A stretch of 64,000 bases of DNA. It comes from Deltaproteobacteria bacterium (lineage in GTDB: Bacteria > Desulfobacterota > Binatia > UBA9968). The stretch lies in NCBI GenBank assembly GCA_016193465.1, contig JACPSE010000124.1:290-64289 (forward strand). Reading direction: 5' to 3'. This document shows positions 8,826 to 56,203 of this stretch, in pieces. Position numbers and translations under genes: made by a program. The first letter of the stretch is position 1. The number at the start of each line of letters is the position of its first letter. Under the pieces are notes generated by a model. It made no database searches, had not been told where the DNA came from, and worked only from the letters and a program-made list of their open reading frames with translations.

Positions 8826-8945
8826 TTTTAAAGGCGGGGCGACTAGCTGGAGTCACCCCATCCTGATGGGCTCAGGTTCCGATTTCTCTCGGGGCCTGAG
8901 CCCACCTCCTTGCGTAACTGGAACAGCAGTCGATCCAGCCGGCCC

Positions 8946-10160: not shown

Positions 10161-10197
10161 GACAGCACCTTAAGAATGGCCAAGTTTTACCACTCGC

Positions 10198-11801: not shown

Positions 11802-12332
11802 ATGAGTGACGCTGAGTTTGTTCCCCAAGAGGGGCCCAAGGCCTTTATAACAGTCTGGCGTAAGGTGATATTAGACCCCCGCGGGTTTTACGGCGACATG
11901 CCGGCGACCGGGGGCTTCGAAAATCCCCTGATTTTCTTGGGCATCTGCGCTCTCTTTTACTTTATACTCAAGGTTATTGTAGGGGGTCTTCCGGAAGCCA
12001 TAAATGCCCTCTTTTTGGTTGCTTTGGCATACATTTTCGGCCCTGGCATCCTGATGCTGGCCTCCCAGTTCATTTTCCAGGGAGAAGGGGACTATGAGGG
12101 GAGCCTGCGCGTATGCGCCTATGCTGGATCCTGTCTGGTTCTCGCCTGGGTACCGACCTTGGGCATCATCGCGTTTGTTTATAGCTTCTATCTCGTTTTT
12201 CTCGGCACGGAAAAAATCCACAAGCTTGACACGACCAAGGCCGTCATCGTCACCCTTGTCGCGATTCTTGTCACTGGAGCTATTATACTTTGGGTTCTCG
12301 GGTGGGACCGGATTCGCCGCCCTCTTTTCTAA
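11802..12332 (+). CDS. Yip1-family integral membrane protein
   Basis: Cytoplasmic N-terminus then 4-5 TM helices; Yip1-like topology and size; start at MSDAEF (long ORF from 11733). Confidence 0.5.
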   Translation: MSDAEFVPQEGPKAFITVWRKVILDPRGFYGDMPATGGFENPLIFLGICALFYFILKVIVGGLPEAINALFLVALAYIFGPGILMLASQFIFQGEGDYEGSLRVCAYAGSCLVLAWVPTLGIIAFVYSFYLVFLGTEKIHKLDTTKAVIVTLVAILVTGAIILWVLGWDRIRRPLF

Positions 12333-12368
12333 GGGGCCTGCTCGGATCAAAAGAAGGAGCTTGGAGAT

Positions 12369-12839
12369 TTACAGGTTATCGTCCTCAGTGTCCGTGATGG
12401 CGAGCTTGCGGTAGCTTCTCTCATCTTCGAACTTCTTTTGCAGCCTGCTTTCCTTTTCCATCTCCTCCTGGCACTTCACGCACAGCCGCGTAAAAGGAAG
12501 GACCTTGAGCCTTCCCAATTGAATCTCGCCCTCGCAGTTTTCGCAGCCGCACTCGCAGATCCCGTAGGTTTTGTCCTTGATCCTCTGAAGGGCCTCGTCG
12601 ATGGCTAACAGCTTTTCCCGCTCGCGGTCGTTAAGGATAAAGTTGATTTCCCGATCTCTCTCGTCGCTGGCCAGGTCGTAGGTGTCCCGCCCTTCGTCCT
12701 TGCTCCCCTCCGTCTCCTCCTTGACGCGCTCCTGGATCTCGCGGAGAAGCTGTTTCTTTGTCTCCAGCAGCGTTTCCTCGGCCTTTTTTAGGAGTTCTTT
12801 TCTCACCTTCTTATCCTGACTCGGTTTAGATTTAGGCAT
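12369..12839 (-). CDS. DksA/TraR-family C4-type zinc-finger protein
   Basis: Coiled-coil N-terminus and CECGCENCEGEI...CVKCQ four-Cys finger. Confidence 0.7.
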   Translation of the reverse strand: MPKSKPSQDKKVRKELLKKAEETLLETKKQLLREIQERVKEETEGSKDEGRDTYDLASDERDREINFILNDREREKLLAIDEALQRIKDKTYGICECGCENCEGEIQLGRLKVLPFTRLCVKCQEEMEKESRLQKKFEDERSYRKLAITDTEDDNL

Positions 12840-14187: not shown

Positions 14188-14879
14188 GGAGATAGTGATC
14201 CCAATTCGATCACGTCGACGCCTTCGGGGAGCTGCAGGCGAAACAGAGAATCTTTCAGTCCCGTTCCCTTGCGCATATTGGAAAAACGGATTGTGGTAAC
14301 GTTGCGCGCCGCGTCCCGAATCCGGCTCCAAAGGATGCTGAACGAGTCACGATCGACTCCCAGCAAGATCTCGCCGACCCCTCCCAATTCTCCCTTCGGT
14401 CCAAGCTGGAGGACATAATGGCCCTGTTCCATATCTTTTAAGCTCACTGTGAAGTCCTTCTTAAGGTTGCCTATCCCCAGCAGAAAGGATAGAGGGATAT
14501 CCGAGCGAAAGGCGTTTTTAAGCGGGCTTTTCATGACCTGTCCTTGCCCCGGCTGGTAATAGTAAAGGCTTTTGCCGTCCGCCAAGACAAACTGGCCTTT
14601 CGGCTCATCGTAGCGCCAGAGCATCCTGCCAGGGCGTTTGAAATAGAGTTTTCCCCATCCCTTGAGGCTGCGGGTAAGCGTCTTAAGCTCCGTCTCTTGC
14701 TGAAAATCCGCGACAAAGTCAACTGCAGAATCATAGCTCTTCTGGAGACTTTCGATAACATGCGCTTCCTCCCCGGGCTCTCCCGCAGCCCCCTGAGAGC
14801 TGCCGGCGAGGAGAGACGAGGCAAGGAATAAAAAAGACAACCATTTAGCCAGGCTTCTACTCTTCGATTTTCCTCGCAT
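14184..14879 (-). CDS. lolA: Outer-membrane lipoprotein carrier protein LolA
   Basis: Signal peptide then LolA-like beta-barrel; located immediately after ftsK, the usual ftsK-lolA arrangement; start chosen at MRGKS. Confidence 0.7.
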   Translation of the reverse strand: MRGKSKSRSLAKWLSFLFLASSLLAGSSQGAAGEPGEEAHVIESLQKSYDSAVDFVADFQQETELKTLTRSLKGWGKLYFKRPGRMLWRYDEPKGQFVLADGKSLYYYQPGQGQVMKSPLKNAFRSDIPLSFLLGIGNLKKDFTVSLKDMEQGHYVLQLGPKGELGGVGEILLGVDRDSFSILWSRIRDAARNVTTIRFSNMRKGTGLKDSLFRLQLPEGVDVIELGSLSP

Positions 14880-17094
14880 AGACCTCCCGTGGCTTCGCGC
14901 CATCCGCCGGTCCCACCACTCCATCTCGCTCCATTTGCTCGATCATCCTGGCGGCCCGGTTGTACCCCACTCTAAGCCGTCTCTGGATCATGGAGATAGA
15001 AGCCTGCTCGGTCTCCGTGACCAACTTCACAGCTTGGTCATACATCTCGTCGTAATCGTCATCTCCGTTTGCCGCCTCGACCTCTTTTTTGGCATCGAAA
15101 ATCTCAGGGCGATAGCGCGGTTTTGCCTGCTGGTTGATGAACTCAACGACCTTGCGGACCTCTTGATCGGAGACATAAGCGCCGTGAATGCGGGAGATGC
15201 GCGCGGTGCCCGGAGGTAGAAAGAGCATGTCCCCATCTCCGAGGAGCCGCTCCGCGCCGATGGAATCCAGGATCGTGCGGGAATCCACCCGGGAGGTAAC
15301 CTGGAATGAGATCCGAGCAGGAAAATTGGCTTTGATAAGTCCGGTTATGACATCGACGGATGGGCGCTGGGTTGCCAAAATCATGTGAATTCCCGCTGCC
15401 CTGGCTTTCTGCGCCAGACGAGTGATGTGCTCCTCAATATCGCTTCTCACAGACATGATCAGATCGGCTAACTCATCTACGACAATCACAATCCGGGCCA
15501 GCCGCTCATGGACCAAAGGGGCTTTTTCCTCTAGATCTCCTCCTAACTCTTGTTCTCCATTGGGCTGCTCCGATTGCCGTAGCTCGATAACCCCGTGCCT
15601 ATCTGCCATTTCTTTCTCTAGCAGTCGGTTATAGTGATCGATGTTTCTGGCTCCTTTATCTCGCATCAGCCGGTAACGGCGGTCCATTTCATCCATGGCC
15701 CAAAATAGGGCTGCGGCGGCTTTTTTCGCATCGGTAACGACCGGAACGATCATGTGGGGAAGGTTTTCATAAACCGTGAGCTCAAGCATTTTCGGATCGA
15801 TCATTATGAATTGCACGTCTTGCGGGGCCGCCTTAAAGAGAATGCTTAAGACCATGGCGTTGATGGAGACAGATTTGCCCGTCCCCGTAGCGCCGGCAAC
15901 GAGCAGGTGGGGCATCCGCGCCAGATCCGCCAGAAAAGGAGCTCCGGAGATATCCTTCCCCAGGGCCAGAGTCAGCTTGGACTCGGCGCTTTGATAGGCA
16001 TCGCCCTCGAAGACCTGTTGCAGAAAGACTTTCTCGCGTCTCGGATTGGGTATTTCGATACCGACAACCGACTTGCCGGGAATCGGGGCCAGTATACGTA
16101 TACTCATTGCACGCAGCGCCATGGAGAGATCATCTGCGAGCGTGACGATCCGTCTTACTTTTACGCCTGGGGCAGGTTCAAACTCGTACATCGTGATGAC
16201 CGGTCCGGGTCGCACGGCCACCACCTTTCCCTCGACGCCAAAGTCAGCCAGTTTCTTCTGCAGGATGAGAGAATTGGCCTCCAGGGTTTCCTTGTCGATC
16301 TTGACGTGTTCTCCATCCGGAGAATCCAGCAGGGCGAGAGTGGGAAGCATGTAGCCCTGGCTAATGTCGGGAAAATCGAGCTGTGCCGGCGCAGCTTTCT
16401 TCCTCGGCTTCTTGGGCGGCTCCTCTTTAACTTCCTCTCTGAGGACAATCGGCGGAGGAACAAACTCCTTGCGCTCTTTCTTGGTATTCTCTCCTTTTGC
16501 CTTTTCCCTTCTCTCACGCCATTTCTTGCTCAAGCTCTCGAGGAGAGCCACGGACTGCTTGGCGAATTCTCTCGCCCCCTTCCTTCCCTTTTCCAGAAGG
16601 GTGACGAGAGATTTTTGGGTGACGGACATCAGCGCGAGCAGGAGCGCCGATAAAACGATAAGATAGGCCCCCACGCGGCTGAAGAGAGAAGTTAAGAGAT
16701 ATTTGGAAAAATCCCCCAGGACCCCTCCGGCAGCGGTGGCAACCTCGGTCTCACGGAGGAGACTTGTCAGTACCGCCACGCCCCAGAGAAAAAGGGCATA
16801 GCCGCTGGCCTTCGTCAGTCGGATTCCTTGGTAGGATTCGCGGAATAAATTGTAAGCGGCGATGAACAAAAACATAGATAGAAGGTAAGCAGAGCGGCCT
16901 AATCCGTGAAGCAAGAGATCGGCCAAGTAGGCCCCGACGATTCCGCCCCAGTTTTGGGTTTGTAGGCTCCCCGAAGGGGTGTTAAAGGAACGGTCGCTGG
17001 GGTTGTAAGAGAAAAGGCTCAATGCGACCAGCAGGGCAAAAACAAAGATAACTACCCCTAAAATCTCGCGGTTCAGCCTGGAGCCTTTTTCCAT
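14857..17094 (-). CDS. ftsK: DNA translocase FtsK
   Basis: N-terminal TM helices, Pro/Lys linker, Walker A GATGTGKS, C-terminal gamma wHTH; start MEKGSRLNREILGVV. Confidence 0.9.
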   Translation of the reverse strand: MEKGSRLNREILGVVIFVFALLVALSLFSYNPSDRSFNTPSGSLQTQNWGGIVGAYLADLLLHGLGRSAYLLSMFLFIAAYNLFRESYQGIRLTKASGYALFLWGVAVLTSLLRETEVATAAGGVLGDFSKYLLTSLFSRVGAYLIVLSALLLALMSVTQKSLVTLLEKGRKGAREFAKQSVALLESLSKKWRERREKAKGENTKKERKEFVPPPIVLREEVKEEPPKKPRKKAAPAQLDFPDISQGYMLPTLALLDSPDGEHVKIDKETLEANSLILQKKLADFGVEGKVVAVRPGPVITMYEFEPAPGVKVRRIVTLADDLSMALRAMSIRILAPIPGKSVVGIEIPNPRREKVFLQQVFEGDAYQSAESKLTLALGKDISGAPFLADLARMPHLLVAGATGTGKSVSINAMVLSILFKAAPQDVQFIMIDPKMLELTVYENLPHMIVPVVTDAKKAAAALFWAMDEMDRRYRLMRDKGARNIDHYNRLLEKEMADRHGVIELRQSEQPNGEQELGGDLEEKAPLVHERLARIVIVVDELADLIMSVRSDIEEHITRLAQKARAAGIHMILATQRPSVDVITGLIKANFPARISFQVTSRVDSRTILDSIGAERLLGDGDMLFLPPGTARISRIHGAYVSDQEVRKVVEFINQQAKPRYRPEIFDAKKEVEAANGDDDYDEMYDQAVKLVTETEQASISMIQRRLRVGYNRAARMIEQMERDGVVGPADGAKPREVYARKIEE

Positions 17095-23166: not shown

Positions 23167-24093
23167 CTACGACTCAACAATTCTAGCAAGTCTCTCTACG
23201 TTCCGTGCAACCTGCTCGTCGGACTGCATCCGCTCGAATAGCCGCGCGACCAAGGTTCCCACCGTTGCCATGTCCCTTCGTAGATAGACCGCCACCTCTC
23301 CAATTCCATAGCCGAGTCGCCGCACTAACACGTACGCTATCATAGTCCGAGCCTTTGATACACTCCAACTACGATCCGGGCTCCTGAGCGCCTCAACTCC
23401 AATCTCCAACCCTTGGGCTAACTCCTTTAAAACAGCAGCGACGGGTTTTCGGTTAGCTGCTTTTTGCCCTTTTCCCAGCTTTTCTTGAATCTTATCCCCA
23501 AATCCTTCGGCTCCTAAAAACCTCTGATCCTCCACCTCGTAATACTCTTCCTTATGTCCATCACCGAGACCGTCAAGAACGAATCTCCTGTAGGCCCCTT
23601 TTCCACCAAAGAGCCTGAGCACTTTTGTTGTATCAAGGACTTCGGTCGGCTTGCCTTCCAAATACACCCTATGTCCACCGTAGCCATACCGCTCAGGTCT
23701 CTTCACTATCCCGGCCCGTACAGGGTTAAGATGAATGTAACGAATGAGCTCCAGTAAGTACTCATCTTTCTCACAAATAATGGCTCTGTATCTCCCCTGA
23801 AAAACGTGTCCGACCTTATGATGCCGTAAGTTAAAATACTGGCTGTAGGATTGCTGAAGTCCCTGCATGAATTTAGCCAAGGGCTGATCGGAACTCTCCA
23901 GCAATAGATGGACATGATTGGGCATCAAACAGTAAGCGTAGACCGAATAATCATATTTTCTACGGTACTTGGCCAGTCGTTCTATGTAGGCCTGATAGTC
24001 CTGGTCGTTAAGGAAGGTTTTCTGTCTTTGGTTTCCTCGAACAATGACATGGTAGAGCAGAGCGGGAGCGAACAATCGTGGACGACGAGCCAC
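23167..24093 (-). mobile_element. IS200/IS605-like Y1 (HuH) transposase of the REP-associated tyrosine transposase type, with C-terminal DnaA-C-like HTH domain
   Basis: YHVIVRGN, CLMPNHVHLL HuH motif, catalytic Tyr region; C-terminal ARTMIAYVLVRRLGYGIGEVAVYL resembles DnaA C-terminal HTH; lower GC than surroundings. Confidence 0.75.
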
Positions 24094-25533: not shown

Positions 25534-25620
25534 CAAGCCCTTCGGGATTTCAAATAGCATATTTCAAATCTCAGATCTGAAATATGAGATCTGCAATGTG
25601 AGATTCCGAGCGGAGCGAGG
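25534..25620. repeat. About 88-bp intergenic palindrome-containing element, copy A (second copy inverted at 42751..42840)
   Basis: caagcccttcgggat..ttcaaatagca..tcagatctgaaat..tgagattccgagcggagcgagg; near-identical to the reverse complement of 42751..42840. Confidence 0.7.
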
Positions 25621-42750: not shown

Positions 42751-42840
42751 AGTCCTCGCTACGCTCTGAATCTCAAATCGCAGATTTCAGATCTCAGATC
42801 TGCTATTTGAAATTTGAGATTTGCCATCCCAAAGGGCTTG
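42751..42840. repeat. About 88-bp intergenic palindrome-containing element, copy B (inverted relative to 25534..25620)
   Basis: Reverse complement reads caagccctttgggatggcaaatctcaaatttcaaatagcagatctgagatctgaaatctgcgatttgagattcagagcgtagcgaggact. Confidence 0.7.
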
Positions 42841-42915: not shown

Positions 42916-43713
42916 ATGAATCGCGATAGCGCAATAGGCGTTTTTGACTCCGGCATTGGCGGGCTGACAGTTCTGCAAAGGATCATGGAGGCGCTGCCGA
43001 GGGAGAACACGGTCTATCTTGGGGACACCGCCCGCTCTCCCTACGGGACCAAGTCGGTGGAGACGGTGCTGCGCTACTCGTTCGAGAATACCGACTTCCT
43101 GTTGGAGAAGGGTGTTAAGCTGGTCGTGGTGGCGTGCAACACTTCGACGGCGATAGCCCTGGAGTCATTGAAGGAAAACGTTTCAGTCCCTGTTATTGGT
43201 GTGATTGAGCCCGGGGTCAGAGGGGCGCTGGAAAAGACGCGAAATGGGAAGATCGGCGTCATCGGAACAGAGGCCACGATCCAGAGCGGGGCTTATTCTC
43301 GAGCCCTCAAGGAAAAAGATTCCGGAGTCGAGGTTTACAGCCGCGCCTGCCCTCTCTTTGTTCCCCTGGTGGAAGAGGGCTGGCTCGATAACGCGGTAGT
43401 GAAGATGACCGTGGAATCGTACCTCGGCAGTCTCAAGCAAAGCGGCATCGATACGCTCATCCTGGGCTGCACCCACTATCCGCTGCTTAAGAAGACGATC
43501 CAGAAATTTTTGGGTCGCGGCGTGCGGCTCGTGGACTCGGCGGAGGAGACCGCCAAGCAAGTGCAAACAACCTTGAAGAAAAGGTCTCTCGCGCGTGAGC
43601 GAGGGAAAGGGGCACCGAGCTTCTTTGTCACCGACGCGCCGGATCGCTTCATCAAGGTGGGGCAGCGCTTTTTAGGCGAGAAGGTGGAGTCCGCGGTCCG
43701 GATCGAGCGGTGA
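42916..43713 (+). CDS. murI: Glutamate racemase
   Basis: IGVFDSGIGGLTV, VVACNTS, LGCTHYP motifs with the two catalytic Cys. Confidence 0.85.
   Translation: MNRDSAIGVFDSGIGGLTVLQRIMEALPRENTVYLGDTARSPYGTKSVETVLRYSFENTDFLLEKGVKLVVVACNTSTAIALESLKENVSVPVIGVIEPGVRGALEKTRNGKIGVIGTEATIQSGAYSRALKEKDSGVEVYSRACPLFVPLVEEGWLDNAVVKMTVESYLGSLKQSGIDTLILGCTHYPLLKKTIQKFLGRGVRLVDSAEETAKQVQTTLKKRSLARERGKGAPSFFVTDAPDRFIKVGQRFLGEKVESAVRIER
43611..43656 (+). repeat. Direct repeat copy 1 (inside murI 3' end), matched by 44141..44186
   Basis: ggcaccgagcttctttgtcaccgacgcgccggatcgcttcat vs ggcagcgagcttctttgtcaccgacgcgccggaccgcctcat. Confidence 0.7.
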
Positions 43714-43739
43714 GCCGACTCTGCATTTTGCTTGTCCTT

Positions 43740-43862
43740 ATGAACGAAGAAAGCCGCCCCATTCATGTGGTATGCTCGCCCAAGGACGATTACCTCGCGA
43801 TCATCACCGCGTATCTGCCGGACCCAGCGCAGGGGTCACCCGACTTTAAAAGGAGGCAGTAG
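43740..43862 (+). pseudogene. N-terminally truncated DUF4258-type toxin remnant (40 codons)
   Basis: HVVCSPKDDYLAIITAYLP matches C-terminal consensus of DUF4258; lacks about 40 N-terminal residues; immediately followed by zinc-finger antitoxin-like gene. Confidence 0.4.
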
Positions 43863-43864
43863 TT

Positions 43865-44095
43865 ATGGAATGCATCCATTGCAAAGGTCAGATGAAGAAG
43901 GCCACGGCACCGTTCACCGTCGACCGGAAGGGCTACCTCGTTCATTGGGACGCTATTCCTGCGTGGGTTTGTGTCCAATGCGGTGAGGCGTACTTTGAAT
44001 CACGAGAGGTTGACTTGATTCAGAAGGCCTTTTCGGTCTTAGACCGCGAGAGTGCTGCATTGACGGCTTCAAGCCGCGCAACTAATGCCAGATAG
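43865..44095 (+). CDS. YgiT/MqsA-type zinc-finger protein (putative antitoxin)
   Basis: CIHCKG...CVQCGEAY two CxxC pairs, 76 aa; RBS aaaaggagg. Confidence 0.6.
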   Translation: MECIHCKGQMKKATAPFTVDRKGYLVHWDAIPAWVCVQCGEAYFESREVDLIQKAFSVLDRESAALTASSRATNAR

Positions 44096-44140
44096 CATTC
44101 AATCGTAGGTTTCCCTTAAGAAAAATCCCTCCGATAGGGG

Positions 44141-44186
44141 GGGCAGCGAGCTTCTTTGTCACCGACGCGCCGGACCGCCTCATTTA
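44141..44186 (+). repeat. Direct repeat copy 2 (duplicate of murI 3' end)
   Basis: 42/45 identity to 43611..43656. Confidence 0.7.
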
Positions 44187-44256
44187 CCTTCAATGAAACC
44201 GGCCTGTCCCCTCTACATCTGCATCTCTCCGGTTCCGCAAGCACTCATACGGCCCC

Positions 44257-46647
44257 TTAGAGCGCCTGAGCCAGGCGAATTAGGATAGCTGCTTGGTCGG
44301 CAGTCAGCGCCTTCCCACTCTGGGCGTGAACCTCGTTGATGAAGGCGCCGATTGCGCCGGCCTTGGCCTGGGTGTTGCCACGGGCTGCAGCGGCCTCAGC
44401 CGCGTTCAGCTTGCTAATCATGGAATTGGCAACTCCCGCTTTGGTGACGAACTGCATGACCAGGTTCCCAAGGCCAGCGGCTGTCACCTGGACCGTAAAG
44501 CTAGTGGACCCGGTGCCCGTATTCCCCGCATTGTCGGTGGCGGACGCGGAGAAGTTGTTCGTCCCCAGAGGGAATGTGTAGGCCGCTCCACTGATGTTCA
44601 CACAGGTTGTGGAAGCGACACCAGACAGGGGGTCAGCAGCCGTGCAAGTGATGGAGACCATCTGGTCGATTGTATAGGTGCCCGCGTTGCCAGAGTACGT
44701 CACCGTGGGCGGTGTCTTGTCGATGTTGATCCCGCCCACCGTGGTCGATGCCGTATTGCCGGCTTTATCCACCGCCGTCCCACTCCTCGACTGTCCCATA
44801 CCCTCTGTAGTCACCACCTGAGGAGTAGGCCCGCAGCTATTAATGCCGGAAAGACCATCGGAGCAGGTGAAGCTCACGGTGACATCAGTGTTGTTCCACC
44901 CGTTGGCGTTGGGTCCAGGCGCGCGGAGGGCCATGATCGACGGTGGTGTCTTGTCGATCTGAACTGTCAAGTTCTTTGCCCCCTCGGTATTTCCTGCATT
45001 GTCTTTGGCGAAGTAGGCGAGGCTGTTCGTCCCCTCCGCTGAGATCACTACCGAAGCAACATTCCCGGCCACCACCGTCTCAGGGCCGCCGTTGAGCGAA
45101 TAGTGGATCTCCTTGACCCCGGAGCCTCCCTCGTTGTCCGTCGCGTTCAGCGTCACGGTTACATCCGTCCTATTCCACCCGTTGGCATTGGGCGCTGGGG
45201 AAGGAGTCGCGGTCGTTGTCGGCGCTGTCGTATCCGTAGGCGCCGTGCACATGCCCGCGCTGCCGGCGTTGAAGATGGCTTGGATTTCTGAAGCAGAGAG
45301 GGCGCGGTTGTAGACTTCAGCTTCATCCATAAGCCCAACAAACCTGTGCTCGTGAGGGACCGCTATCGGAGGGCGATGCCCCAGATAAAGATCGTAACTG
45401 GTCTGCGGCGTGATTGTTCCCACAGCTACAGCAGCGACCGGATTCCCGTTCAGGTAGATTTTGGCAATGCCCGTCTGCTTTTCGTATGTCAGGGCGACAT
45501 GTTGCCACACGCTTGCCTGGACGATGCCTCCTGAGGTGCCTACGAGGTGATGAGCTCCAGTCGTATCAACGAGGGTTGCAGCCAGAGCCGCGCCTGGCAC
45601 TATCCAGAAAACCGCCCCAGGTCCGAATTGCCCCGATCCATTGTTCCATTCGAAGAGTGGCCGGTACGTTGAAGCATCAGCCGGCTTGATCCAGGCATCG
45701 AGCGTGAAGCCACTGCCCAGCCCGACATCAAGATTGGCAGACGCCGGAATCTTTACAAAGTCATCCACACCATCAAAGCTGAAGGCCTGCCCGACCTTTC
45801 CAGGGGCAAAAGTCGCGCCGCCTTGCAATGTGCCGTCGTTGCCATCCGCAATATCATCCGCATTCCCCTCCCCTGGCCACCAGGAGACGAGTCCTGATGG
45901 GGGCTCGACGCATGTGTCGGCCGGTGGCGGAGGTGCCGTCCCTTCGTACAACTCTCGAATCTCCGCATCCGACAAGGCACGGCCATAGATGCCGACATCA
46001 TCTATGGTGCCCTTGAAAGAAAACCCATCGAAGAAACCACCACCGCTTCTGGGATGCACCCCAATCATCCAAGGAATAGTATCGATTGGTATTCCTTGAG
46101 AATACGGCGTACTTCCATCCAGCACACCATTCAGAAAAACCTTGATGTGTGAACCGTCATACGTTGCAGCAACGTGATACCACCGATCGCCAGCCAATGG
46201 GGTGCTTCCCAGTGCTTGGTGCCAGACACTGCTACCATCTCTATTGAGTATCATCGCTATGACGTTGCCTCTGATCTCCAAAGCAAGATTGCCTGGTGTA
46301 TCCCAGCCAGTCAGTTTTGCGATGATCACCTTTCTTCCTGTTGCATCCGAGTCATACTTAACCCATGCATGTAGAGTCAAATATGTTGGGCTATAGGCAT
46401 AAAGCGATGGAAGATCGACATAACTATTGCTCCCATTGAAACTATACGCTTGATTGGAATTTCCGAGCCTGTCCGTGGTCAGTGTCGCGTTGCTGACGAC
46501 GCCGTTGTTCCCATTCCCGCTCTCATCGTTGGCATTGCCATTGAACGGCCAGTAGGCAACAAGGCCATCATTCATGCCTGCGTGGGTGGGACTGAAGACA
46601 AGAAACACTAACAAGAACGTGACAAGTACCCCAATCGACTTCTTCAT
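44257..46647 (-). CDS. Large secreted LamG-like (concanavalin A-like lectin) repeat protein with OmpL47-type Ig-like domains and C-terminal helical domain
   Basis: Signal peptide; three repeats of the LamG_3 pattern (LVAYWPFNGNANDESGNGNNG, ..FDGVDD.V..P.S.., ..L.AW.K), two NANGWN.TDVTV..A.D..SG OmpL47-like modules. Confidence 0.75.
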   Translation of the reverse strand: MKKSIGVLVTFLLVFLVFSPTHAGMNDGLVAYWPFNGNANDESGNGNNGVVSNATLTTDRLGNSNQAYSFNGSNSYVDLPSLYAYSPTYLTLHAWVKYDSDATGRKVIIAKLTGWDTPGNLALEIRGNVIAMILNRDGSSVWHQALGSTPLAGDRWYHVAATYDGSHIKVFLNGVLDGSTPYSQGIPIDTIPWMIGVHPRSGGGFFDGFSFKGTIDDVGIYGRALSDAEIRELYEGTAPPPPADTCVEPPSGLVSWWPGEGNADDIADGNDGTLQGGATFAPGKVGQAFSFDGVDDFVKIPASANLDVGLGSGFTLDAWIKPADASTYRPLFEWNNGSGQFGPGAVFWIVPGAALAATLVDTTGAHHLVGTSGGIVQASVWQHVALTYEKQTGIAKIYLNGNPVAAVAVGTITPQTSYDLYLGHRPPIAVPHEHRFVGLMDEAEVYNRALSASEIQAIFNAGSAGMCTAPTDTTAPTTTATPSPAPNANGWNRTDVTVTLNATDNEGGSGVKEIHYSLNGGPETVVAGNVASVVISAEGTNSLAYFAKDNAGNTEGAKNLTVQIDKTPPSIMALRAPGPNANGWNNTDVTVSFTCSDGLSGINSCGPTPQVVTTEGMGQSRSGTAVDKAGNTASTTVGGINIDKTPPTVTYSGNAGTYTIDQMVSITCTAADPLSGVASTTCVNISGAAYTFPLGTNNFSASATDNAGNTGTGSTSFTVQVTAAGLGNLVMQFVTKAGVANSMISKLNAAEAAAARGNTQAKAGAIGAFINEVHAQSGKALTADQAAILIRLAQAL

Positions 46648-46763
46648 ACTACTACCCTCCGTTCAGTTACCAGTAAAATGTCCGCTGGGGGCGGTGAATT
46701 GCACGAGCTGGCGATCGCACACGCGATCCCCAGTACTGCCGCTAGGAAGATGCGTCGGCTCAT
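46644..46763 (-). CDS. Possible 39-aa signal-peptide-like small ORF overlapping start of LamG gene (ATGA)
   Basis: Strong SD ggaaggagg 4 nt before ATG; MSRRIFLAAVLGIACAIASSC; speculative. Confidence 0.25.
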   Translation of the reverse strand: MSRRIFLAAVLGIACAIASSCNSPPPADILLVTERRVVV

Positions 46764-46968
46764 ACTGCCTCCTTCCTGAGAGCGTAGTCGCCATAAAAGG
46801 CCCTTATGAGTTTCACCCCTTAAGATCACACGTTCTGGTCTTTTCATGACTTTCTCCCTCAGGTCAGATTTATCGCTGCGTTTTCCTGCACCGGCCTTGA
46901 CAGTTTGCTTTTTTCCGACTGATTTGACAATAATCACTTTCAATCATTTTTATGATTAACCTGACCAC

Positions 46969-47631
46969 ATGCGCCTCAAGGAAATCAGAAAATTAGTCGA
47001 GAGCACAGGCGATCCTGCGTTCGCGGTTGATGGCTTGGGTTTGATTGTTGCCTGGAACTCCGCCGCCGCGGCTCTATTCGGCGTGACCGCCGGGGAGACG
47101 GTGGGTAAACCGTGCAGCCAGATCATTCAAGGCGCCGATGAGTGCGGCCTCGTCTGCTCTAACGTTTGCACAGTGCTACCGGCGGCTCGAAAGCGCCGTC
47201 CTGTCAGCAACTTCGACCTTCAGATTGAGACCAGGCAAGGCCGCAAGTGGTGTAACGTGTCGGTCTTGATAGCGCGCGAACGGGAGTCAACATCGCCGTA
47301 TTGCATCCACATCGTTCGCCCCACCGATATTCCCAAACGGCTTGAGTTGTTGATGCGCGATTTTATAGTTACTGAGACAGGGCTACCCCCTAAATCTGCC
47401 AGGAGGCTCGGCTCTTTGCGCCGTATTCCTACGGGCGAGGCAGAGCTGACAAAGCGGCAGGGTGAGATTCTCCGCTTACTTGTCAAAGGCGCCACAACGG
47501 CATCCATAGCCGTAGAGCTACATATCAGCCGGACCACCGTCAACAACCACGTTCAGCAGATCCTCCGCAAGCTCAATGCGCACACGCGCCTGGAGGCGAT
47601 CCGGCGCGCTGAGCGCGCAGGCTCGATCTGA
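46969..47631 (+). CDS. PAS-domain LuxR-family transcriptional regulator
   Basis: N-terminal PAS-like (FAVDGLGLIVAWNSAAAALFG); C-terminal LTKRQGEILRLLVKGATTASIAVELHISRTTVNNHV HTH. Confidence 0.75.
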   Translation: MRLKEIRKLVESTGDPAFAVDGLGLIVAWNSAAAALFGVTAGETVGKPCSQIIQGADECGLVCSNVCTVLPAARKRRPVSNFDLQIETRQGRKWCNVSVLIARERESTSPYCIHIVRPTDIPKRLELLMRDFIVTETGLPPKSARRLGSLRRIPTGEAELTKRQGEILRLLVKGATTASIAVELHISRTTVNNHVQQILRKLNAHTRLEAIRRAERAGSI

Positions 47632-47777
47632 GAATCTTGACGCCTTGCGGCGCTGGAGTGACGTTAATCGTTAATGGCTATTCGTCGGGGACACTGGGCG
47701 CAAGCGCAAACGCCGAGTAACGATTATACGAGTAACGAATCTCTTGTATCAACTGTCCAGAATCGTGTATTTTAATC

Positions 47778-47850
47778 AGAAGGCATTAGGCAATAGGCAG
47801 AAGGCAACAGGAAGATGATTTAACTCTCGCCTCACGCCTTTCGCCTGAAA
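47778..47850. repeat. Heptamer-arm hairpin element (AGGCNNG arm / complementary arm), upstream of secA
   Basis: aggcattaggcaataggcagaaggcaacagg-aagatgatttaactctcg-cctcacgcctttcgcctg. Confidence 0.6.
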
Positions 47851-47855
47851 GCTTT

Positions 47856-50800
47856 ATGCTTAACTTCATCAAAAAAATCATCGGCACGAAAAACGAGCGC
47901 GAGATCCGGCGCATTCAGCCCCTGGTGGAGCAGACTAACGCCCTCGAACCCCAATACGAGAAGCTCACCAACGCGGAGCTAAAGGCCAAGACTGACGAGT
48001 TTAAGAAAAGGATCCAGGAGGCGACCTCAGCCTGCCGCGCCGCGCTCGAAGAGAAACAAGCTCAGGCTGCGGCGGTAACCGGGGAGGAGCGCGAGGAGCT
48101 GAAGGCTGAGGCGGAGGGGATCGAGAAAGAATTGCGTCTGGCCGGAGCTAAGGTTCTCGATAGCCTCATCCCCGAGGCCTTTGCCGCAGTGCGCGAGGCC
48201 TCCAGGCGCACGATAGGGCTGCGCCATTTTGACGCCCAGCTCATTGGCGGCGTGGTCCTGCACGAGGGCAAGATCGCCGAGATGAAGACCGGTGAGGGCA
48301 AGACCCTGGTGGCCACGCTCCCGTTCTATCTGAACGCCCTTACAGGAGATGGAGTTCACCTCATCACGGTCAACGACTATCTCGCGCGCCGGGATGTCCA
48401 ATGGATGGGACCGATTTACCATCTGCTGGGTCTTTCCGTGGCCTCCATGGTGCACGAGGCGAGCTATCTCTTCGACCCTGCTTACATCACCAAGGACTAC
48501 CGTTATCTGAATCTCCGCCCCATCTCGCGCAAAGAGGCTTACCTGGCGGACATCACCTACGGGACCAACAATGAGTTTGGCTTCGATTATCTGCGCGACA
48601 ATATGAAATTTTCCCTGGAGGAATATGTCCAGCGGGATCTGAATTACGCCATCGTGGACGAGGTCGACAATATCCTGATCGACGAGGCCAGGACGCCGCT
48701 GATCATCTCTGGTCCTGCGGAGGAATCGACCGACAAGTACTACATCATCGATCGGATTATCCCCAAGCTGCAGCGCGGCGCGGTCATTCAGGGGGATGCC
48801 TCGCAGGAAAAGCGCGCCGAGATCGAGGCGCAGGGCGACTATACGGTCGATGAAAAGAGCCGGACGGTTACGCTGACCGAGACCGGAGTGGCCAAGGTCG
48901 AGCGCCTGCTCAGTATCCACAACCTCTACGATCCGCGGCAGATCGATACCCTGCACCACGTTAACCAGGCCCTTAAGGCCCACGCGCTTTTTAAACGCGA
49001 TGTCGATTACGTCATTAAGGATGGCGAGGTGATCATCGTCGACGAATTCACCGGCCGCCTCATGCCCGGAAGGCGCTGGTCCGACGGTCTCCATCAGGCG
49101 ATCGAAGCCAGAGAAGGGGTGCACATTCGCGAGGAGAATCAAACCCTGGCGACGATCACGATTCAGAACTATTTCCGCATGTACAAAAAGCTCGCCGGCA
49201 TGACCGGGACAGCCGACACCGAGGCCACGGAGTTCAAGAAGATCTATAAGCTCGACGTGGTGGTTGTCCCAACGCACAGGAAGATGATCCGCAATGATAA
49301 TGCCGATATGGTCTACCGGAGCGAGAAAGAGAAGTTCGACGCGGTAGTGGAGGAGATTGAGGCGTGCGATCAGAAAGGCCAGCCGGTTTTGGTCGGCACG
49401 ACCTCGGTGGCGAAGTCCGAGCGTCTCTCCCGGATGCTCAAGAAAAAAGGGATCAAGCATAACGTGCTGAACGCCGTAAATCACGAGGCGGAGGCGAGCA
49501 TCATCGCCCAGGCCGGTCGGTTTGAGGCCGTGACCATTGCCACTAACATGGCCGGGCGGGGGACCGATATTTTGCTCGGTGGCAATCCGGAATTTTTGGC
49601 CCGTTCGGACATGGAGAACGAATGGATCAGCCGGGCCTCCAAACTGCCGTTGCAAGGGGCCACGCGATACGAAGATGCGCTGCGGGAGCTAAGGGAGAAA
49701 TGCGAAGAGGAGATCCAGCGGGTGGAAGCGCGTTATCGCAAGGAAGCGGAGATCCACGAGCAGAAACGAGGGAATGCGCTGAAAAGGGCCACCGAGATCC
49801 AGCGCCGCTTAAGAGAGCTTTCCCCGTTTCGAGGGCTGCGGCAGGAATACGAAGAGGTCTCAACCAGCGAATTGATCGAGGCGCTGCATGAGCTGCGCGG
49901 CATTCCCGGGGGTTACCTTAAAGTTAAGGAGAAGCTGGAAGAAACCCTTTTTAAGGAAGGGGATGCGGGAGCTATCGAGGCCCGGCGCGCCTTTGAAGAG
50001 GCCCGCGACTCCTTCGGAGAATACCTGGATCGCTGGCAGCGGGGGGATGGTGAAAGACGCGAACTCATGGAGGCCCTGGACGAGAAGAGGCGCAACTACG
50101 AACAGCGTATTAACGATTACGAGGTCGGGGTGACGAACGCGGTTCTGTCGCAGGGGGAACATGCTCCCTTGGTCGCGGAATACGAGGAGACTCGCCGGGC
50201 GTATGAAGAGGCGGAGGCGCGCTGCGAGGAACTCCGGCGTCCTTACGAGGAGGCGGTTCGTGAGGCGCAGAGGAGTTACGAGGCCAAACGGCAGGAGTAT
50301 GTTCGCATAGTCGAGGAGATTCGAGAACAGTTGGAGAAGGCCCCGGAAGCCTACCGGCAGAGATACGAGGAGATCCTGGAAGGGTATAACAAGCTGTGCG
50401 CCGAAGAGAGGGAGAAGGTTATTGCCGCCGGGGGGCTCCACATCGTCGGGACAGAACGGCACGAGAGCCGCAGGATCGACAACCAGTTGCGCGGCCGTTC
50501 CGGCCGCCAGGGCGATCCGGGTTCGTCCCGTTTCTACCTTTCGCTGGAAGATGATCTCATGCGCATCTTTGGCGCGGATCGGATTCAGGGCATTATGAAC
50601 CGCTTGGGCATGGAAGAGGGCGTGCCTATCGAGCATCGCCTGGTGACCCGGGCCATAGAGAACGCCCAGAAAAAGGTCGAGGCCCATAACTTCGATATCC
50701 GCAAACACCTCCTGGAATACGATGACGTTATGAACAAGCAGCGGGAGGTGATCTACCACCAGAGGAGGGAAGTCCTCAAAGGGGAGAACCTGAAAGAGGA

Positions 50801-51452
50801 TGTCCTGGAAATGGCCCAGGGCTTGGGTGAGGATATGGTGGGGCGCTGCGTGGATAAAAATCTCCACCCCTCGGAGTGGGACCTCAGCGGGCTGCGGGAG
50901 GCGCTCTATCACCAATTTAATTTTCGTCTGGATCTGAAGCCAGAGGAACAGGAAGATTTGAGCGTCGAGAAGCTGCAGGAAATTGTTGTGGAGAAGCTAA
51001 GCCAGACCTACGAGAAGAAGGAAGAGCGGTTCAGCTCTCCTATGCTCCGGCAGTTGGAGAAGATTATCATGCTCCAGACGATCGACAGCTTGTGGAAGGA
51101 CCACCTCCTTAATATGGACCATCTGAAAGAGGGGGTTGGGTTGCGTGGTTATGGCCAGAAGAACCCTTTGCAGGAGTATCAGAAGGAAGGGTTCGAGATG
51201 TTTGAGGAGATGGTCCGCCAGATTCAAGTGGATGTCGTGCAGAAGCTCTTTACCATTGAAATGGCGCGGGAAGGCGCTTTAGAAGAGATGGAAGTTCAGC
51301 GTCGCCCGCAGAGAATTGTTTTGAGCCATGGCGGCGACGGGGAAGAGCCGGCGCGGGTGACCCCGATCAAGCGGCAGGGCAGTAAGGTTGGCAGGAACCA
51401 GCCTTGTCCCTGCGGCAGCGGCAAGAAGTACAAACGTTGTTGCGGCAAATGA
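47856..51452 (+). CDS. secA: Preprotein translocase ATPase SecA with about 270-aa expanded variable (VAR) subdomain
   Basis: Walker [42 protein letters not shown]-terminal zinc site [14 protein letters not shown]; 1198 aa with E/R/A-rich insertion about 49600..50430. Confidence 0.95.
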
Positions 51453-53172: not shown

Positions 53173-54618
53173 TTAGTTTCCTAGTTTTTTCCTCAGTATC
53201 TCATTGACCATTTGGGGGTTGGCCTTGCCCCGGGTGGCCTTCATGACTTGCCCCACCAGAAAGCCGAAAACCTTCTCTTTTCCGGCGCGATAGTCTGATA
53301 CCTGCTCCGGCTGGCCGGCAAGCACCTCGTCGATGGCCCTTTCGATGTTGCCCGCGTCCGTGACCTGCTCTAAGCCTTTCTCGCGGACTATCCTGTCCGG
53401 GGACTCTCGTCGTTCCAGCATCTCTAGAAATAGAGCTTTGGCCATCTTGCCGCTGATCTTTCCTTCATCGATCATGCGGACCATCTCGGCTAAATGATCG
53501 GGGGCAATCGGCCAGGCGGTGATGCGGAGGTTCTCATCCAGTTTCTTCTCCCTGATGATCCGAAAGAGATCGCCCATGACCCAATTGCTGATCGCCTTGG
53601 GATTGGGGTGGCTCTTCACTGCCGCTTCGAAGTAGTCCGCCACATCCCTGCGACTTGTGAGAAGCTCGGCATCGTAGAGGGGGAGAGCGTATTCGGACAT
53701 AAAGCGTTCCTTTTGCTGCTCTGGCAGTTCCGGAAGGCCGGCCCTGATCGCTTCGATCCATTTTTCCTCGATGATAAGGGGGAGCAGATCTGGCTCCGGG
53801 AAATAGCGGTAGTCGTGGGCAAACTCCTTGGAGCGCATGGAGCGGGTGATTTCACGCTCCGCGTCCCAAAGCCTGGTTTCCTGGATAAGTTTGCCTCCTT
53901 CCGAGAGGGTCTCGATCTGCCTCCGGATCTCATATTCCAGGGCCTTTTCTACCGCCTTGAAGGAGTTCATGTTCTTGATCTCAACCTTGGTGCCGAACTC
54001 GCTGGAGCCGCGCGGACGCACGGAAATATTGGCATCGCAGCGAAAGGAGCCTTCCTCCATGTTGCCATCGCAGACCTCTAGATATTGCAAAATGGCTCTC
54101 AGATTCTTGAGGTAGCGGCCGGCCTCTTCGGCGCTGCGGATATCCGGCTCGCTGACGATCTCCATGAGCGGGACGCCGGCTCGATTCAGATCTACCAGAC
54201 TGTAGTCCCCACGGACGTCGTGGATGTTTTTTCCCGCGTCTTCCTCCATGTGGATGCGGGTCAGGCGGATTTTCTTTTTGCCCCCATTGGACTCGATCTC
54301 GATGTGACCGTTGCGGCATAAGGGCAGCTCGTACTGGCTGATCTGATAGCCCTTGGGAAGGTCGGGGTAGAAGTAGTTTTTTCTGGCCCAACGGCTGAAG
54401 CGCGCGATCTCGCAGTGAGTGGCCAGCCCTGTGCGGACGGCGAATTCAACGACTTTCTTGTTGAGCACCGGCAAGACTCCAGGGAATCCCATGCATACCG
54501 GACAGCTATTTTGGTTGGGATGTGCCCCAAAACGTGTCGAGCAGCCGCAGAAAATCTTGGACTCGGTTAAAAGCTGGGCGTGGACCTCAAGGCCGATGAC
54601 AGGCTCGTAGTTGCTCAT
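53173..54618 (-). CDS. gatB: Asp/Glu-tRNA amidotransferase subunit B
   Basis: [16 protein letters not shown]..., C-terminal YqeY-like domain. Confidence 0.95.
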
Positions 54619-55016
54619 TTCTTACCGCCTATCTTTTCCCGAATCTCAGTAACGATGGCTTTCGCGTCTTTCAGTGCATTTTGAGCATCCGCCTTCGTAG
54701 GCTCCCCCGCGGGCAGCAGGCCTGGAAGGGCATCGGCATATCGTGTCGGAATGTAGAAACGATCCAGGTTCCGGCACAGTGTCCGCCACTTCCGCAGCTC
54801 AGTGCGGATTCCAGCGTCGTAGAGAAGCATCTGCTCCAGGGAATGGCTCTTGGGATGAGTTCCTAGTCGGGCATCCAAGAGTCCCTTTAGTGCTTTTTCA
54901 ACGGCCTGCTGGGCGTGAAAGCAGGTTTGCCGGAAAATGCTCCGAGACAAGGCGTATTCAGCCATCTCGATGTCTTCATTCGCAAGTTCCAACCAGCGCT
55001 CAGCCTCAGGCTTCAT
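54615..55016 (-). CDS. HEPN domain protein (putative toxin/partner of adjacent nucleotidyltransferase)
   Basis: HEPN helices with R..(4-6)..H-type motif ([12 protein letters not shown]) ; 133 aa; 4-nt overlap with upstream NTase gene. Confidence 0.65.
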
Positions 55017-56203
55017 ACCGGAAAAAGCACTTGCCCTTTCTTGAGAATCTCACCCCTCACGAAGAAGTGCCCCTCCTGCTCCGCCCGATTAAACTCCTCA
55101 GGGGTATAGACAATGGCATTCAGGCCAACCCGTGGTTGGAGCAGGTCCATGACTTCTCGGATGCGATCCAAGAAGCTCGCCGGAGTCGATTTCACAATAG
55201 CCAGATCAATATCGCTCCACTGGTGAACCGCATCTGGGGAATGGTCGGCAAGGGAGCCGAAGAGGATAATACGCTCAGGACGATACTGTTCGACCAACTT
55301 GCTCTTGATTCGTTCCAGCTCTCGTAGGAGCGTTTCTCTCCTGTCAAAGAGCTTCCGGAAGATTTTTTTGAGCTCTGGCCTTAGGGGGTGAGCCGCCCGC
55401 GGGTTTGTAAACAGACGACTATGGACTCTCACATCGTGAAAGTGTGGGACTAGCTTCATCCATACGAGAGCGCTTATGCGGGATGTTCCTCCCCTATCGT
55501 CAGGGAGACAAAAGAGCCCATCGGGGACTCGCTCGTTTCTAATTTCACGTCTTAGAGCATTAGCCTTGTAAACCTCATCCCCCCAGAGGACCGACTCCAT
55601 ATCTTCTAAGCGGCCTCCGCGTGCTCCGACAACCAGGACCGTCGGCTTCCCGGACGGGAGTTGGTCAAGTTCTTTCGTAATTCGTTGACGCAACTCCTGA
55701 GAGGCCGGAATTCCTCGGATCTCTGAATTATCTCTAGCGGTGGTCGGATCAAAGGTTGCCTCGACGGTGACGCGACCATAGACACGCGTATCATCAGCAA
55801 CGGTATCCGACCCGTAAACAGGCGGGAACCTATCCTCCCTGGTCGTGACCTCGAGGAATACTTCTTGCCCCTTTAACTGGCACTTCAAGTCACATTTGGC
55901 GGCGCCAACTTTCGGCGCCAGTTCCAACTTGTCGGCAACGGGAGCTAGCATGGCTGCAACTCTTATTTCGTACATCGCCGCGAGGAACTGGCCGGCGTTT
56001 TGCAACAACGTTCGATAGGCGGTTGCGATTTTAACGCATGGCAAGTGACGTGTCAGAAGCTCAAGGTCTTGTTCCACCTGCCACAGCGGAAGGATGCCGA
56101 GTTGCTCAAACTCGCGCTTCCGCGCACTAAGGTTGCGACTCCCAAGCAGTTCGGCTAGACGAGGGAACTTATTCGAGATTAGAGAAGTCAACGTATTATC
56201 CAT
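55013..56203 (-). CDS. Minimal nucleotidyltransferase (MNT) domain protein with about 290-aa N-terminal domain of unknown function
   Basis: C-terminal [10 protein letters not shown]...DIDLAIV (GS...D.D) pol-beta-type NTase motif; start MDNTL overlaps gatA stop by 8 nt; upstream ORF extension overlapping gatA rejected. Confidence 0.6.

Follow-up and report, generated by a model that had tools for sequence, protein, structure and literature searches.

Tandem accretion of elements lacking a recombinase at the 3' ends of genes is well known, and minimal mobile elements lying between conserved flanking genes were reportedly described by Saunders and Snyder in 2002. To our knowledge, descriptions of minimal mobile elements and of toxin–antitoxin (TA) hot spots mention no modules that are bounded by partial copies of a neighbouring core gene. 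Restriction-modification units show long target duplications of 45–423 bp without mobility genes (PMC2853133). TA systems cluster in small spots and are re-acquired at the same spot, with frequent pseudogenization of the toxin (PMC13617665). No TA cassettes with a long target duplication, and no arrays bounded by gene tails, were found in the literature searched.

The locus described here lies in a stretch of 64,000 nucleotides from a Candidatus Binatia bacterium, referred to as the window. With a probability of roughly 0.6, the feature behind murI represents the first, now decayed, member of a stack of selfish addiction modules that occupies the interval between murI and secA in one Candidatus Binatia clade and would have arisen by long target duplication without a recombinase. 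The features of the window that bear on this reading are as follows.

42916–43713, forward strand: murI (glutamate racemase), full length (Pfam Asp_Glu_race, E 1.9e-26).
43609–43656, forward strand: repeat copy 1, within murI, at −105 to −58 counted from the end of the stop codon.
43714–43749, no strand: short leader remnant after the murI stop, resembling the HicAB cassette leader in sister genomes.
43746–43862, forward strand: 3' remnant of a DUF4258 (RelE/ParE-superfamily) toxin, codons ~66–105 of 105 (DNA homology, tblastn and Pfam).
43865–44095, forward strand: intact YgiT-type zinc-ribbon antitoxin of 76 aa (TIGR03831), with two CxxC pairs and no HTH domain.
44096–44137, no strand: cassette 3' flank, from the antitoxin stop to the murI-tail copy, with the same junction in L083/L084/L086.
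44138–44186, forward strand: repeat copy 2, a partial murI tail that lacks its right-hand part (nhmmer E 2.1e-7).
44187–44256, no strand: junction into the 3' flank of the convergent LamG gene, with no murI similarity.
44257–46647, reverse strand: LamG/Ig-domain secreted protein of 796 aa (Pfam Laminin_G_3, 4e-50).
46969–47631, forward strand: PAS-LuxR regulator, with which the variable stretch ends as far as genes are concerned (Pfam GerE and PAS).
47741–51452, forward strand: secA promoter motif TCTTGTA-N17-GTGTATTTTA plus secA (named by eye), the conserved right border.

The MurI of the window, for which an exact-sequence look-up gave no record, aligned over residues 1–265 with its counterparts in relatives at 76–91% identity. 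The direct repeat was recovered with the three mismatches first claimed for it, 41 of 44 positions being identical between 43609–43652 and 44140–44183. The initial annotation had taken the repeat to be the last 46 bp of murI; because murI runs from 42916 to 43713, the repeated piece is instead an internal part of the 3' end (−105 to −58), and copy 1 is followed by 57 nt more of murI before the gene ends. Copy 2 is itself truncated: it corresponds to positions 17–65 of a profile of murI tails, and its in-frame reading is GGAASFFVTDAPDRLIYLQ followed by a stop, after which murI similarity is lost. The equivalent copy in L084 extends to the stop codon, and the tail copy behind the same cassette in L083/L084 spans −110 through the stop codon. 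A dispersed repeat was ruled out, since the exact 27-nt core GAGCTTCTTTGTCACCGACGCGCCGGA occurs at just two sites in 64 kb (0 expected in shuffles). Two Logan contigs (L001 and L002), which are independent assemblies, reproduce the region from 43644/43675 to past 44300 at 100% identity, and L002 covers the last 70 nt of murI, the cassette, copy 2 and the LamG gene. These contigs break beside the repeat, as assemblers do, and copy 2 is closest to the resident murI; both points would suit a repeat that is unrelated to the insertion, be it a local tandem duplication, a gene-conversion tract or a two-strain assembly artefact. Such an origin is highly improbable, given that L002 spans the whole arrangement at full identity, that the junction between cassette and copy is identical in the window, L083/L084 and L086, which are other samples with DNA 8–9% different, and that eight or more loci, mostly on metagenome contigs or MAGs, are built in the same way.

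Comparison with Candidatus Binatia relatives revealed the empty site that the initial annotation had proposed to look for downstream of murI. In about 100 of them (most of the ~50 GTDB relatives in which secA was found, plus >50 JGI loci) secA lies 82–170 bp after murI, and at two of the empty sites (L095 and L091) MurI is 91% identical to that of the window. The piece that is repeated here at 41/44 is a single-copy target in L095, L091 and ~100 other relatives, in agreement with the earlier view that part of the murI tail was duplicated and that the resulting repeat is linked to the insertion; the murI 3' end is the duplicated target. The gap between murI and secA measures 4142 bp in the window (43714–47855). 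What had been regarded as a self-contained insert of 480 bp is rather the first element of this 4.1-kb variable stretch, for which sister genomes hold multi-module arrays. The LamG gene was absent from 80/80 GTDB relatives fetched, and LamG homologs occupy the same stretch in L093, L097, L098 and L100. Junctions analogous to that between copy 2 and the LamG flank were found elsewhere in the tail copy, at profile position 76 in L100 and position 90 in L099. In L093 and L086 a murI-tail copy that begins at profile position 21–22 comes after the same PAS-LuxR gene; no closing vestige of a tail copy was detectable between LuxR and secA in the window.

The 40-codon ORF had been interpreted as the C-terminal part of a DUF4258 toxin, and this identification holds. 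The remnant can be read as 40 codons from an ATG (43740–43862) or as 50 codons from a GTG (43710–43862), the latter overlapping the murI stop. It aligned with positions 43–70 of the 71 positions of the DUF4258 Pfam profile PF14076 at 23.8 bits, below the cut-off of 25, and tblastn matched it to residues 62–104 of intact 105-aa toxins, whose PF14076 label is a precomputed Pfam annotation and which adjoin antitoxins 91% identical to that of the window. A full-length 40-aa toxin was ruled out, the family form beside the related antitoxin being 105 aa. DNA homology to the intact cassettes, at 91–92%, begins at 43746; a conserved RW is changed to QG in the remnant, and its pN/pS of 0.8–2.2 rests on very few changes. 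Toxins of the RelE/ParE superfamily are presumed to be RNases. With residues ~62–105 as all that is left of the toxin, the locus falls short of a functional type II TA pair, and the initial description of a TA remnant in which a degraded toxin accompanies an intact antitoxin, inserted relative to the empty site, is borne out.

The leader remnant is ~75% identical (~27/36 positions, counted by eye on the alignment) to the sequence after the murI stop in L092 and L099, and resembled neither the DUF4258 leaders of L085/L086 nor the empty sites of L095/L091; because the stretch is short (~36 nt), the assignment is made with moderate confidence. The window lacks the region that holds the leader and promoter in intact cassettes, and a search for sigma-70-like promoters found none in 43300–44400. 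A single deletion appears to have joined the HicAB-type leader (43714–43749) to toxin codon ~62–66. Of the erosion first proposed for the toxin, the remnant itself stands; point-by-point wearing probably did not occur, the 36 nt after the stop matching a HicAB leader.

The antitoxin gene is intact and, as first noted, has a strong ribosome-binding site, AAAGGAGG being located 7 nt upstream of its ATG. Its product belongs to TIGR03831 (YgiT_finger; 41.2 bits against a cut-off of 20.2), its CxxC pairs are C3-x2-C6 and C36-x2-C39 in the translation, and its 76 aa are typical of 117 homologs, mostly of 70–77 aa. It falls outside the MqsA family (TIGR03830, 26.6 against a cut-off of 61.8) and scored 18.6 against the cut-off of 30 for PF15731, matching only profile positions 1–66 of 131. 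The DNA binding of MqsA comes from its HTH domain, and the protein of the window ends ahead of it. Against the intact cassettes pN/pS is ~0.2, a value that adds both branches, including the one having an intact partner, and the antitoxin probably remains under purifying selection. It would be transcribable only via read-through from murI, and may confer immunity against related toxins. The expectation that an orphan antitoxin beside an eroded toxin is a recurrent outcome was supported by L088, L089, L171 and L175/L176, and the same has been reported (PMC13617665). For annotation, this means a pseudogene for what is left of the toxin, a murI fragment for copy 2 and an orphan antitoxin.

The antitoxin might have left the mobile relic through domestication and now serve the host, either in the role of a small zinc-ribbon regulator or in that of an anti-addiction gene sharing its transcript with murI, with the repeat an irrelevant scar; because it has no promoter of its own, its expression would depend on murI. 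The intact frame, the ribosome-binding site, the low pN/pS and the recurrence of orphan YgiT genes in other contexts (L088, L089, L171 and L175) are in line with this proposal, which is nevertheless rather doubtful in view of the missing HTH domain, the contribution to pN/pS of a branch with an intact partner and the absence of the gene from 80/80 GTDB relatives fetched. Domestication is compatible with the stack of addiction modules rather than opposed to it.

In the closest relatives the stretch behind murI consists of a module, a partial murI tail, a further module and a further partial tail. The TA modules of these arrays are HicAB, VapBC, Phd-PIN and DUF4258-YgiT, and blocks of LamG, LuxR and TPR genes are likewise bounded by tail copies. 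Two to four tail copies each were found in L092, L093, L098, L099 and L100, where they separate HicAB, VapBC, Phd-PIN, DUF4258-like, LamG, LuxR and TPR modules; in L004 the final 57 nt of murI are repeated after vapBC. Three contigs that overlap at 100% identity (L085/L084/L083) carry the intact cassette behind murI, with a 105-aa toxin and a 76-aa antitoxin, then a tail copy covering profile positions 14–123 with an in-frame stop inside, and further on a second two-gene module, a tail copy covering positions 54–123, and vapB. The left edges of the tail copies vary by module (profile positions 5, 14, 21–24, 43, 54–68 and 89), and a given module meets the tail copy that follows it at a fixed point, whichever modules adjoin it in the different arrays:

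DUF4258-YgiT junction: tail profile position 14.
VapBC(A) junction: tail profile positions 64–67.
LuxR junction: tail profile positions 21–22.
Phd-PIN junction: tail profile positions 23–24.

Judged from these sequence comparisons, the modules move as units. They are merely 0.7–0.9 kb long with both junctions intact, and the HicAB module ends within a vapC remnant rather than at any att-like junction. L087, where the genomic context is unrelated, shares part of the DUF4258 leader, which so belongs to the cassette; the idea that leaders are duplicated native intergenic DNA with the secA promoter is unsupported for the same reason. Clustering of 60-nt tails gave mixed results as to a resident or donor origin of the tail copies, which are short. 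Three features of the arrays are such as a site-specific system would produce, namely at least six module types at one gene end, the co-orientation with murI of all TA pairs except one reverse-strand PIN gene (L093), and a similarity of the copies that stops at the stop codon. The end of similarity at the stop codon can be argued to reflect that coding sequence is conserved and intergenic sequence is not.

The same TA family was also found at other targets. On a Rokubacteria-like contig (L175/L176), the 3' end of an acyl-CoA-synthetase gene is present in two 93-nt copies, 89% identical, that enclose an eroded DUF4258 toxin together with an intact YgiT antitoxin; L177 provides a clean empty site matching this insertion, and the right-hand copy in L175 runs on into the original downstream gene. 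In L174 a 76-nt repeat (97% identical) surrounds a TA island of 3.4 kb. No duplication was found around a HEPN/nucleotidyltransferase insertion in gatCAB. By sequence, then, long duplication by this TA family is not murI-specific.

Pfam scans of the large ORFs in ~45 kb of arrays matched no integrase, transposase or other mobility gene; in L093, L098, L099 and L100 these scans covered the fetched DNA, which ends before secA. Likewise, no mobility family was found by Pfam in the four main ORFs of the window insert (43714–47855), a set that does not include the 99-aa ORF at 46644–46943; for the rest of the window the ORF list was read only by eye for recombinases, and no mobility gene was seen. 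Folding of the murI tail as single-stranded DNA gave z-scores of −0.4 to +1.1, no better than shuffles, which ruled out an attC-like hairpin; the separators of the arrays are murI coding sequence without excess folding and no integrase was found beside them, unlike in an integron. Nor do the junctions share a constant core, the left edges being module-specific. Site-specific integration, as the initial annotation had suggested, is thus unsupported, with no integrase in the scanned ORFs, edges that differ, and a 93-nt duplication of another gene in another phylum.

A related possibility is that the modules are remnants of integrative elements which entered the murI 3' end through a tyrosine or serine recombinase acting in trans, each bringing a replacement murI tail and displacing the old one to its far end, with only addictive TA genes surviving the decay. 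The gathering of six or more types of module at a single gene end, the murI orientation of nearly all TA pairs, and displaced copies that begin where the module dictates and extend to include the stop codon, like icd' beside e14, would all be expected of such elements. The absence of a recombinase match among the large ORFs of ~45 kb of arrays and, by eye, in the window outside the insert, the scattered left edges with no shared core, modules of 0.7–0.9 kb with intact junctions, a HicAB module ending inside a vapC remnant and long duplications by the TA family of two other unrelated targets make it unlikely.

Long target duplication without a recombinase accounts for these observations more readily, with one departure: copy 2 stops at −58 and abuts the LamG flank, and so does not continue into the original downstream sequence, and in L084, L004 and L092 the right-hand copy reaches the stop codon and is then followed by other modules rather than by the original sequence. 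In the proposed course of events, a DUF4258 toxin/YgiT antitoxin cassette would have been added directly after murI, duplicating ~110 nt of the murI 3' end through host replication or recombination. Candidate routes are two template switches in replication, the ligation of a linear fragment into two sister duplexes at points that are offset from each other, and a single crossover with a circle bearing a murI-tail fragment. The tail copies could then act as short homologies, through which modules would be gained, lost and reshuffled as units. One later deletion would have fused the HicAB-type leader to toxin codon ~62–66, with loss of the cassette promoter and two thirds of the toxin, and another would have truncated the tail copy at −58, so that it now abuts the LamG gene on its 3' side; the toxin is presumably dead. 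That the partial murI tails are working recombination sites of a gene-capture platform that piles up addiction modules and other cargo after an essential gene, served by host homologous recombination alone or an unrecognised recombinase, and that long target duplication is a general TA route across phyla, is a long shot.

Among known systems, chromosomal integron arrays share with the murI arrays their ordered, mostly co-oriented small cassettes, many TA pairs and an order that varies between relatives. They differ in that the murI arrays have neither IntI nor attI, are separated by homologous copies of coding sequence instead of structured attC sites (z ~0), and contain cassettes with promoter-like leaders of their own, as suggested by leader conservation across contexts. 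CIME/ICESt at fda, SCC/pseudo-SCC at rlmH and e14/phage 21 at icd resemble the locus in forming series of modules, some recombinase-less, each bounded by a direct repeat of the gene 3' end, with the functional gene intact at the left; here, by contrast, no recombinase or constant core was found, the repeats are long with a module-specific extent, and the modules are <1 kb. As in TA erosion hot spots (Belot et al. 2026, PMC13617665), TA systems are gathered in small intervals between core genes, acquisition recurs at one spot, and the toxin is lost first, the antitoxin remaining. The murI arrays form a natural series of empty, one-module, many-module and decayed states in which gain, shuffling and erosion can be ordered.

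Like the restriction-modification units with long target duplications (Nobusato et al. 2000, Gene 259:99; Furuta et al. 2010, NAR, PMC2853133), the modules are small post-segregational-killing units without a mobility gene, and their flanking direct repeats of >30 bp align with a target that genomes with an empty site possess once; the repeat length varies from event to event (44–119 nt at murI, 93 nt in L175 and 76 nt in L174). Unlike those units, the cargo here is a type II TA pair with a presumed RNase-type toxin, events stack into arrays behind one essential gene, and the right-hand copy in the window is truncated. Because the TA cargo is not DNA-cutting, a restriction-break mechanism cannot apply here. 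At the murI locus, in the sister arrays and in L175 (empty site L177), TA pairs entered with target duplications of 44–119 nt, a signature so far described for restriction-modification units and tentatively tied to DNA cleavage. Since TA toxins of this family (RelE/ParE superfamily) are presumed RNases, this route may be a general host-recombination pathway for small addictive modules.

A toxin-antitoxin (TA) cassette of the DUF4258-YgiT type follows murI in the window and is enclosed by two copies of a murI segment:

42916-43713, plus strand: murI (Pfam Asp_Glu_race)
43609-43652: copy 1 of the repeat, inside murI
43740-43862 (ATG, 40 codons) or 43710-43862 (GTG, 50 codons): toxin remnant ORF between the repeat copies, with a DUF4258 profile match
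43865-44095: YgiT-type antitoxin, 76 aa, between the repeat copies (NCBIfam zinc-finger model)
44140-44183: copy 2

The copies are identical at 41 of 44 positions, and their exact 27-nt core occurs at only two places in the window, where none is expected by chance. The repeat described in the initial annotation is thus borne out and is not a dispersed element. It is not, however, the very end of murI as proposed there: the duplicated segment spans the stretch from 105 to 58 nt upstream of the stop-codon end and is followed by 57 further murI nucleotides. In frame, copy 2 encodes GGAASFFVTDAPDRLIYLQ*, beyond which murI similarity is absent. Cassette, copy 2 and next gene recur at 100% identity in two independent Logan assemblies, and no unusual single-strand folding was seen in the murI tail. 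Of the 71 positions in the DUF4258 profile, the toxin remnant covers just 43-70. Because the closest antitoxin homologs (91% identity) adjoin, across a 2-nt gap, a DUF4258 toxin of 105 aa, the 40-aa ORF is not a full-length family member, and the window retains just the ~40 final toxin codons. The antitoxin is whole (homologs usually have 70-77 aa) and passes the NCBIfam YgiT zinc-finger model but fails the MqsA model because the HTH half is absent. The suggested pairing of a degraded toxin with an intact antitoxin therefore holds; a search of the window for a second DUF4258 gene found none.

The top MurI matches are Candidatus Binatia MAGs, and murI with its two upstream genes is syntenic in about 40 relatives, where the gene 3' of murI corresponds to secA. 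Two window features belong here:

47741-47775: promoter-like motif TCTTGTA-N17-GTGTATTTTA upstream of secA, also in relatives and conserved across Binatia
47856-51452: secA (named by eye from sequence)

Between murI and secA lie 82-170 bp in most GTDB species with secA located and in >50 JGI metagenome loci. The window has 4142 bp there, occupied by the TA remnant and copy 2, a convergent gene with a LamG domain, a small ORF and a regulator of the PAS-LuxR type. The expected empty site was found in related genomes, including contigs L095 and L091 (both 91% MurI identity), so that occupancy is polymorphic among close relatives.

Elsewhere in the window, two palindromic elements of CAGATYT-like heptads (25558-25593 and 42769-42823, the latter just upstream of murI) occur where 0 are expected by chance, and an IS200/RAYT-like ORF was identified by eye at 23167-24093. 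HEPN and nucleotidyltransferase-type ORFs (54615-56200, by eye; the HEPN-domain ORF at 54615-55016, minus strand) lie between gatB and gatA, interrupting the gatCAB cluster; no flanking direct repeat was found around them.

An intact form of the cassette could be ordered from three overlapping contigs (identical overlaps of 693 and 897 nt), and JGI contigs with 89-91% identical MurI have a matching design, each with 2-4 partial copies of the murI 3' end (tail copies; positions refer to a profile built from murI tails).

Gene order in module arrays behind murI
Intact array: murI; leader, 223 nt; toxin and antitoxin, both intact; tail copy, profile positions 14-123, in-frame stop; two-gene module, unknown family; tail copy, positions 54-123; vapB
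L099: HicAB, vapC remnant, copy, VapBC, Phd-PIN, copy, LamG-like gene, LuxR
L093: VapBC, PIN, copy, LamG-like gene, LuxR, copy (split by 141-nt MITE-like insert), TPR gene
L100: distant DUF4258/YgiT pair, copy, LamG gene, further genes, Phd-PIN, copy, TPR gene
L098: two secreted-protein genes, copy, TPR gene, copy, VapBC
L092: HicAB, vapC remnant, copy
L004 (MAG, MurI 81% identical): vapBC, copy of final 57 nt of murI

The insert in L093 (13706-13846) has a TCAA duplication, and sequences like it, GGGCTCAGGACGAAC...GTGGTGAGC, widen the murI-secA spacer in L005 and L006. In L083 (553-1067) one cassette position of the array is taken by a two-gene module (67 aa and 104 aa) without a match in Pfam or NCBIfam, which may be an undescribed TA pair; a homolog of its 67-aa protein lies inside the murI-secA gap of L103 (2937-3182). 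In the Binatia contig L112, ~7.5 kb after murI (8780-16350) encode a CopG antitoxin, a DUF4258 toxin, an HNH-repeat protein and a Phd+RelE-like pair, followed by leuS in place of secA. TA genes occupy the murI interval of L043, L103 and L112, from other lineages, with no detectable tail copy.

The window is homologous to intact DUF4258 cassettes from 43746 onwards. The 36 nt past the murI stop (43714-43749) are ~75% like the HicAB cassette leader of L092 and L099 (own count on the alignment) and resemble neither DUF4258 leaders nor empty sites. The simplest reading of these alignments would be a single deletion that began in a HicAB-type leader and ended inside the toxin gene, taking with it the cassette promoter and toxin codons 1-65. 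No promoter-like site was found between murI and the antitoxin, whose expression would thus need murI read-through. Against the nearest intact cassettes, pN/pS is ~0.2 for the antitoxin and 0.8-2.2 for the toxin remnant, the latter from few changes, which include loss of a conserved Arg-Trp. Toxin-first erosion is also seen in recent surveys (PMC13617665), and as relics go the window feature is ordinary: dead toxin, orphan antitoxin and gene-fragment scar.

In tail copies before different modules, the shared similarity reaches no further than the stop codon. The left edge varies between modules and is fixed per module across arrays with different neighbours:

DUF4258-YgiT junction: profile position 14 (window, L084, L086)
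VapBC type A junction: profile positions 64-67 (L004, L092, L098, L099)
LuxR junction: profile positions 21-22 (L086, L093)
Phd-PIN junction: profile positions 23-24 (L099, L100)

Given this constancy, each junction was probably formed a single time; the modules would then have moved as units, with exchange inside the tail copies. The type A VapC stop codon sits at the murI-tail junction, AAGAAGAGA|TAGGCCAGCGC (L004 5540-5546; L092 about 2020; L098 about 12415; L099 about 9510), so that the fusion provides the end of the toxin gene. Right edges short of the stop codon (position 65 in the window, 76 in L100, 90 in L099) all abut the 3' flank of a convergent LamG-type gene, at differing points, and look like deletions. 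A site-specific integrase supplied in trans is a possible agent that placed the modules at the murI end, and would explain why so many, in nearly uniform orientation, occupy one gene end. Nevertheless, none of the array ORFs scanned matched an integrase, transposase or resolvase family, no such gene was seen among window ORFs read by eye, a common core is absent, and the HicAB module terminates within a vapC remnant. The clean stop-codon boundary may reflect conserved coding against fast-diverging intergenic sequence.

Moreover, this TA family has other targets as well. A second, independent case lies in the Rokubacteria-like contig L175 (2673-3386; likewise in L176), where an intact YgiT antitoxin sharing 77% identity with that of the window adjoins a DUF4258 toxin eroded to its last 15 recognisable codons, and the pair has a 93-nt copy of an acyl-CoA-synthetase 3' end on either side, the two copies being 89% identical; the related L177 (2395-2520) has a clean empty site with the flanking genes 7 nt apart. 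In L174, a 76-nt direct repeat (2106-2181 and 5625-5700, 97% identical) surrounds a 3.4-kb island of TA pairs (NTP_transf_2, DUF4258+YgiT, DUF433+PIN), and a 49-nt repeat (3339-3387 and 4558-4606, 98% identical) follows two inner modules. The DUF4258/YgiT cassette of the murI site recurs in L087 (4351-6220), at 86% DNA identity and in a different genomic context; there a DUF433/PIN pair is bordered by partial copies (6023-6058, 6155-6220) of the 3' end of a gene for a 176-aa protein. No repeat was found around the TA genes in two other contexts (L171/L172 and L089/L090). Duplication-linked TA insertion is thus not murI-specific, and these targets, with the lack of a recombinase match among the ORFs scanned, the absent core and the HicAB end, disfavour the integrase. 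Of the site-specific integration with target duplication first proposed, the duplication stands and the site-specificity is not supported.

What rises above routine is the context: TA cassettes in two phyla come with long target duplications, and tail fragments of an essential gene separate the modules of the arrays. No description of the two together for TA systems was found in the literature searched. The arrays would reflect repeated insertion events and recombination between the resulting short homologies, and the duplications may have arisen by template switching, staggered joining to sister duplexes or a Campbell-type crossover, all of which fit the data. The murI pattern agrees with "insertion with long target duplication", as published for restriction-modification units that lack mobility genes and have 45-423-bp repeats (PMC2853133), and on these grounds the window repeat is read as a putative remnant of such a duplication. 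With those units the TA units at murI share long direct repeats and, among the ORFs scanned, the lack of a mobility gene.
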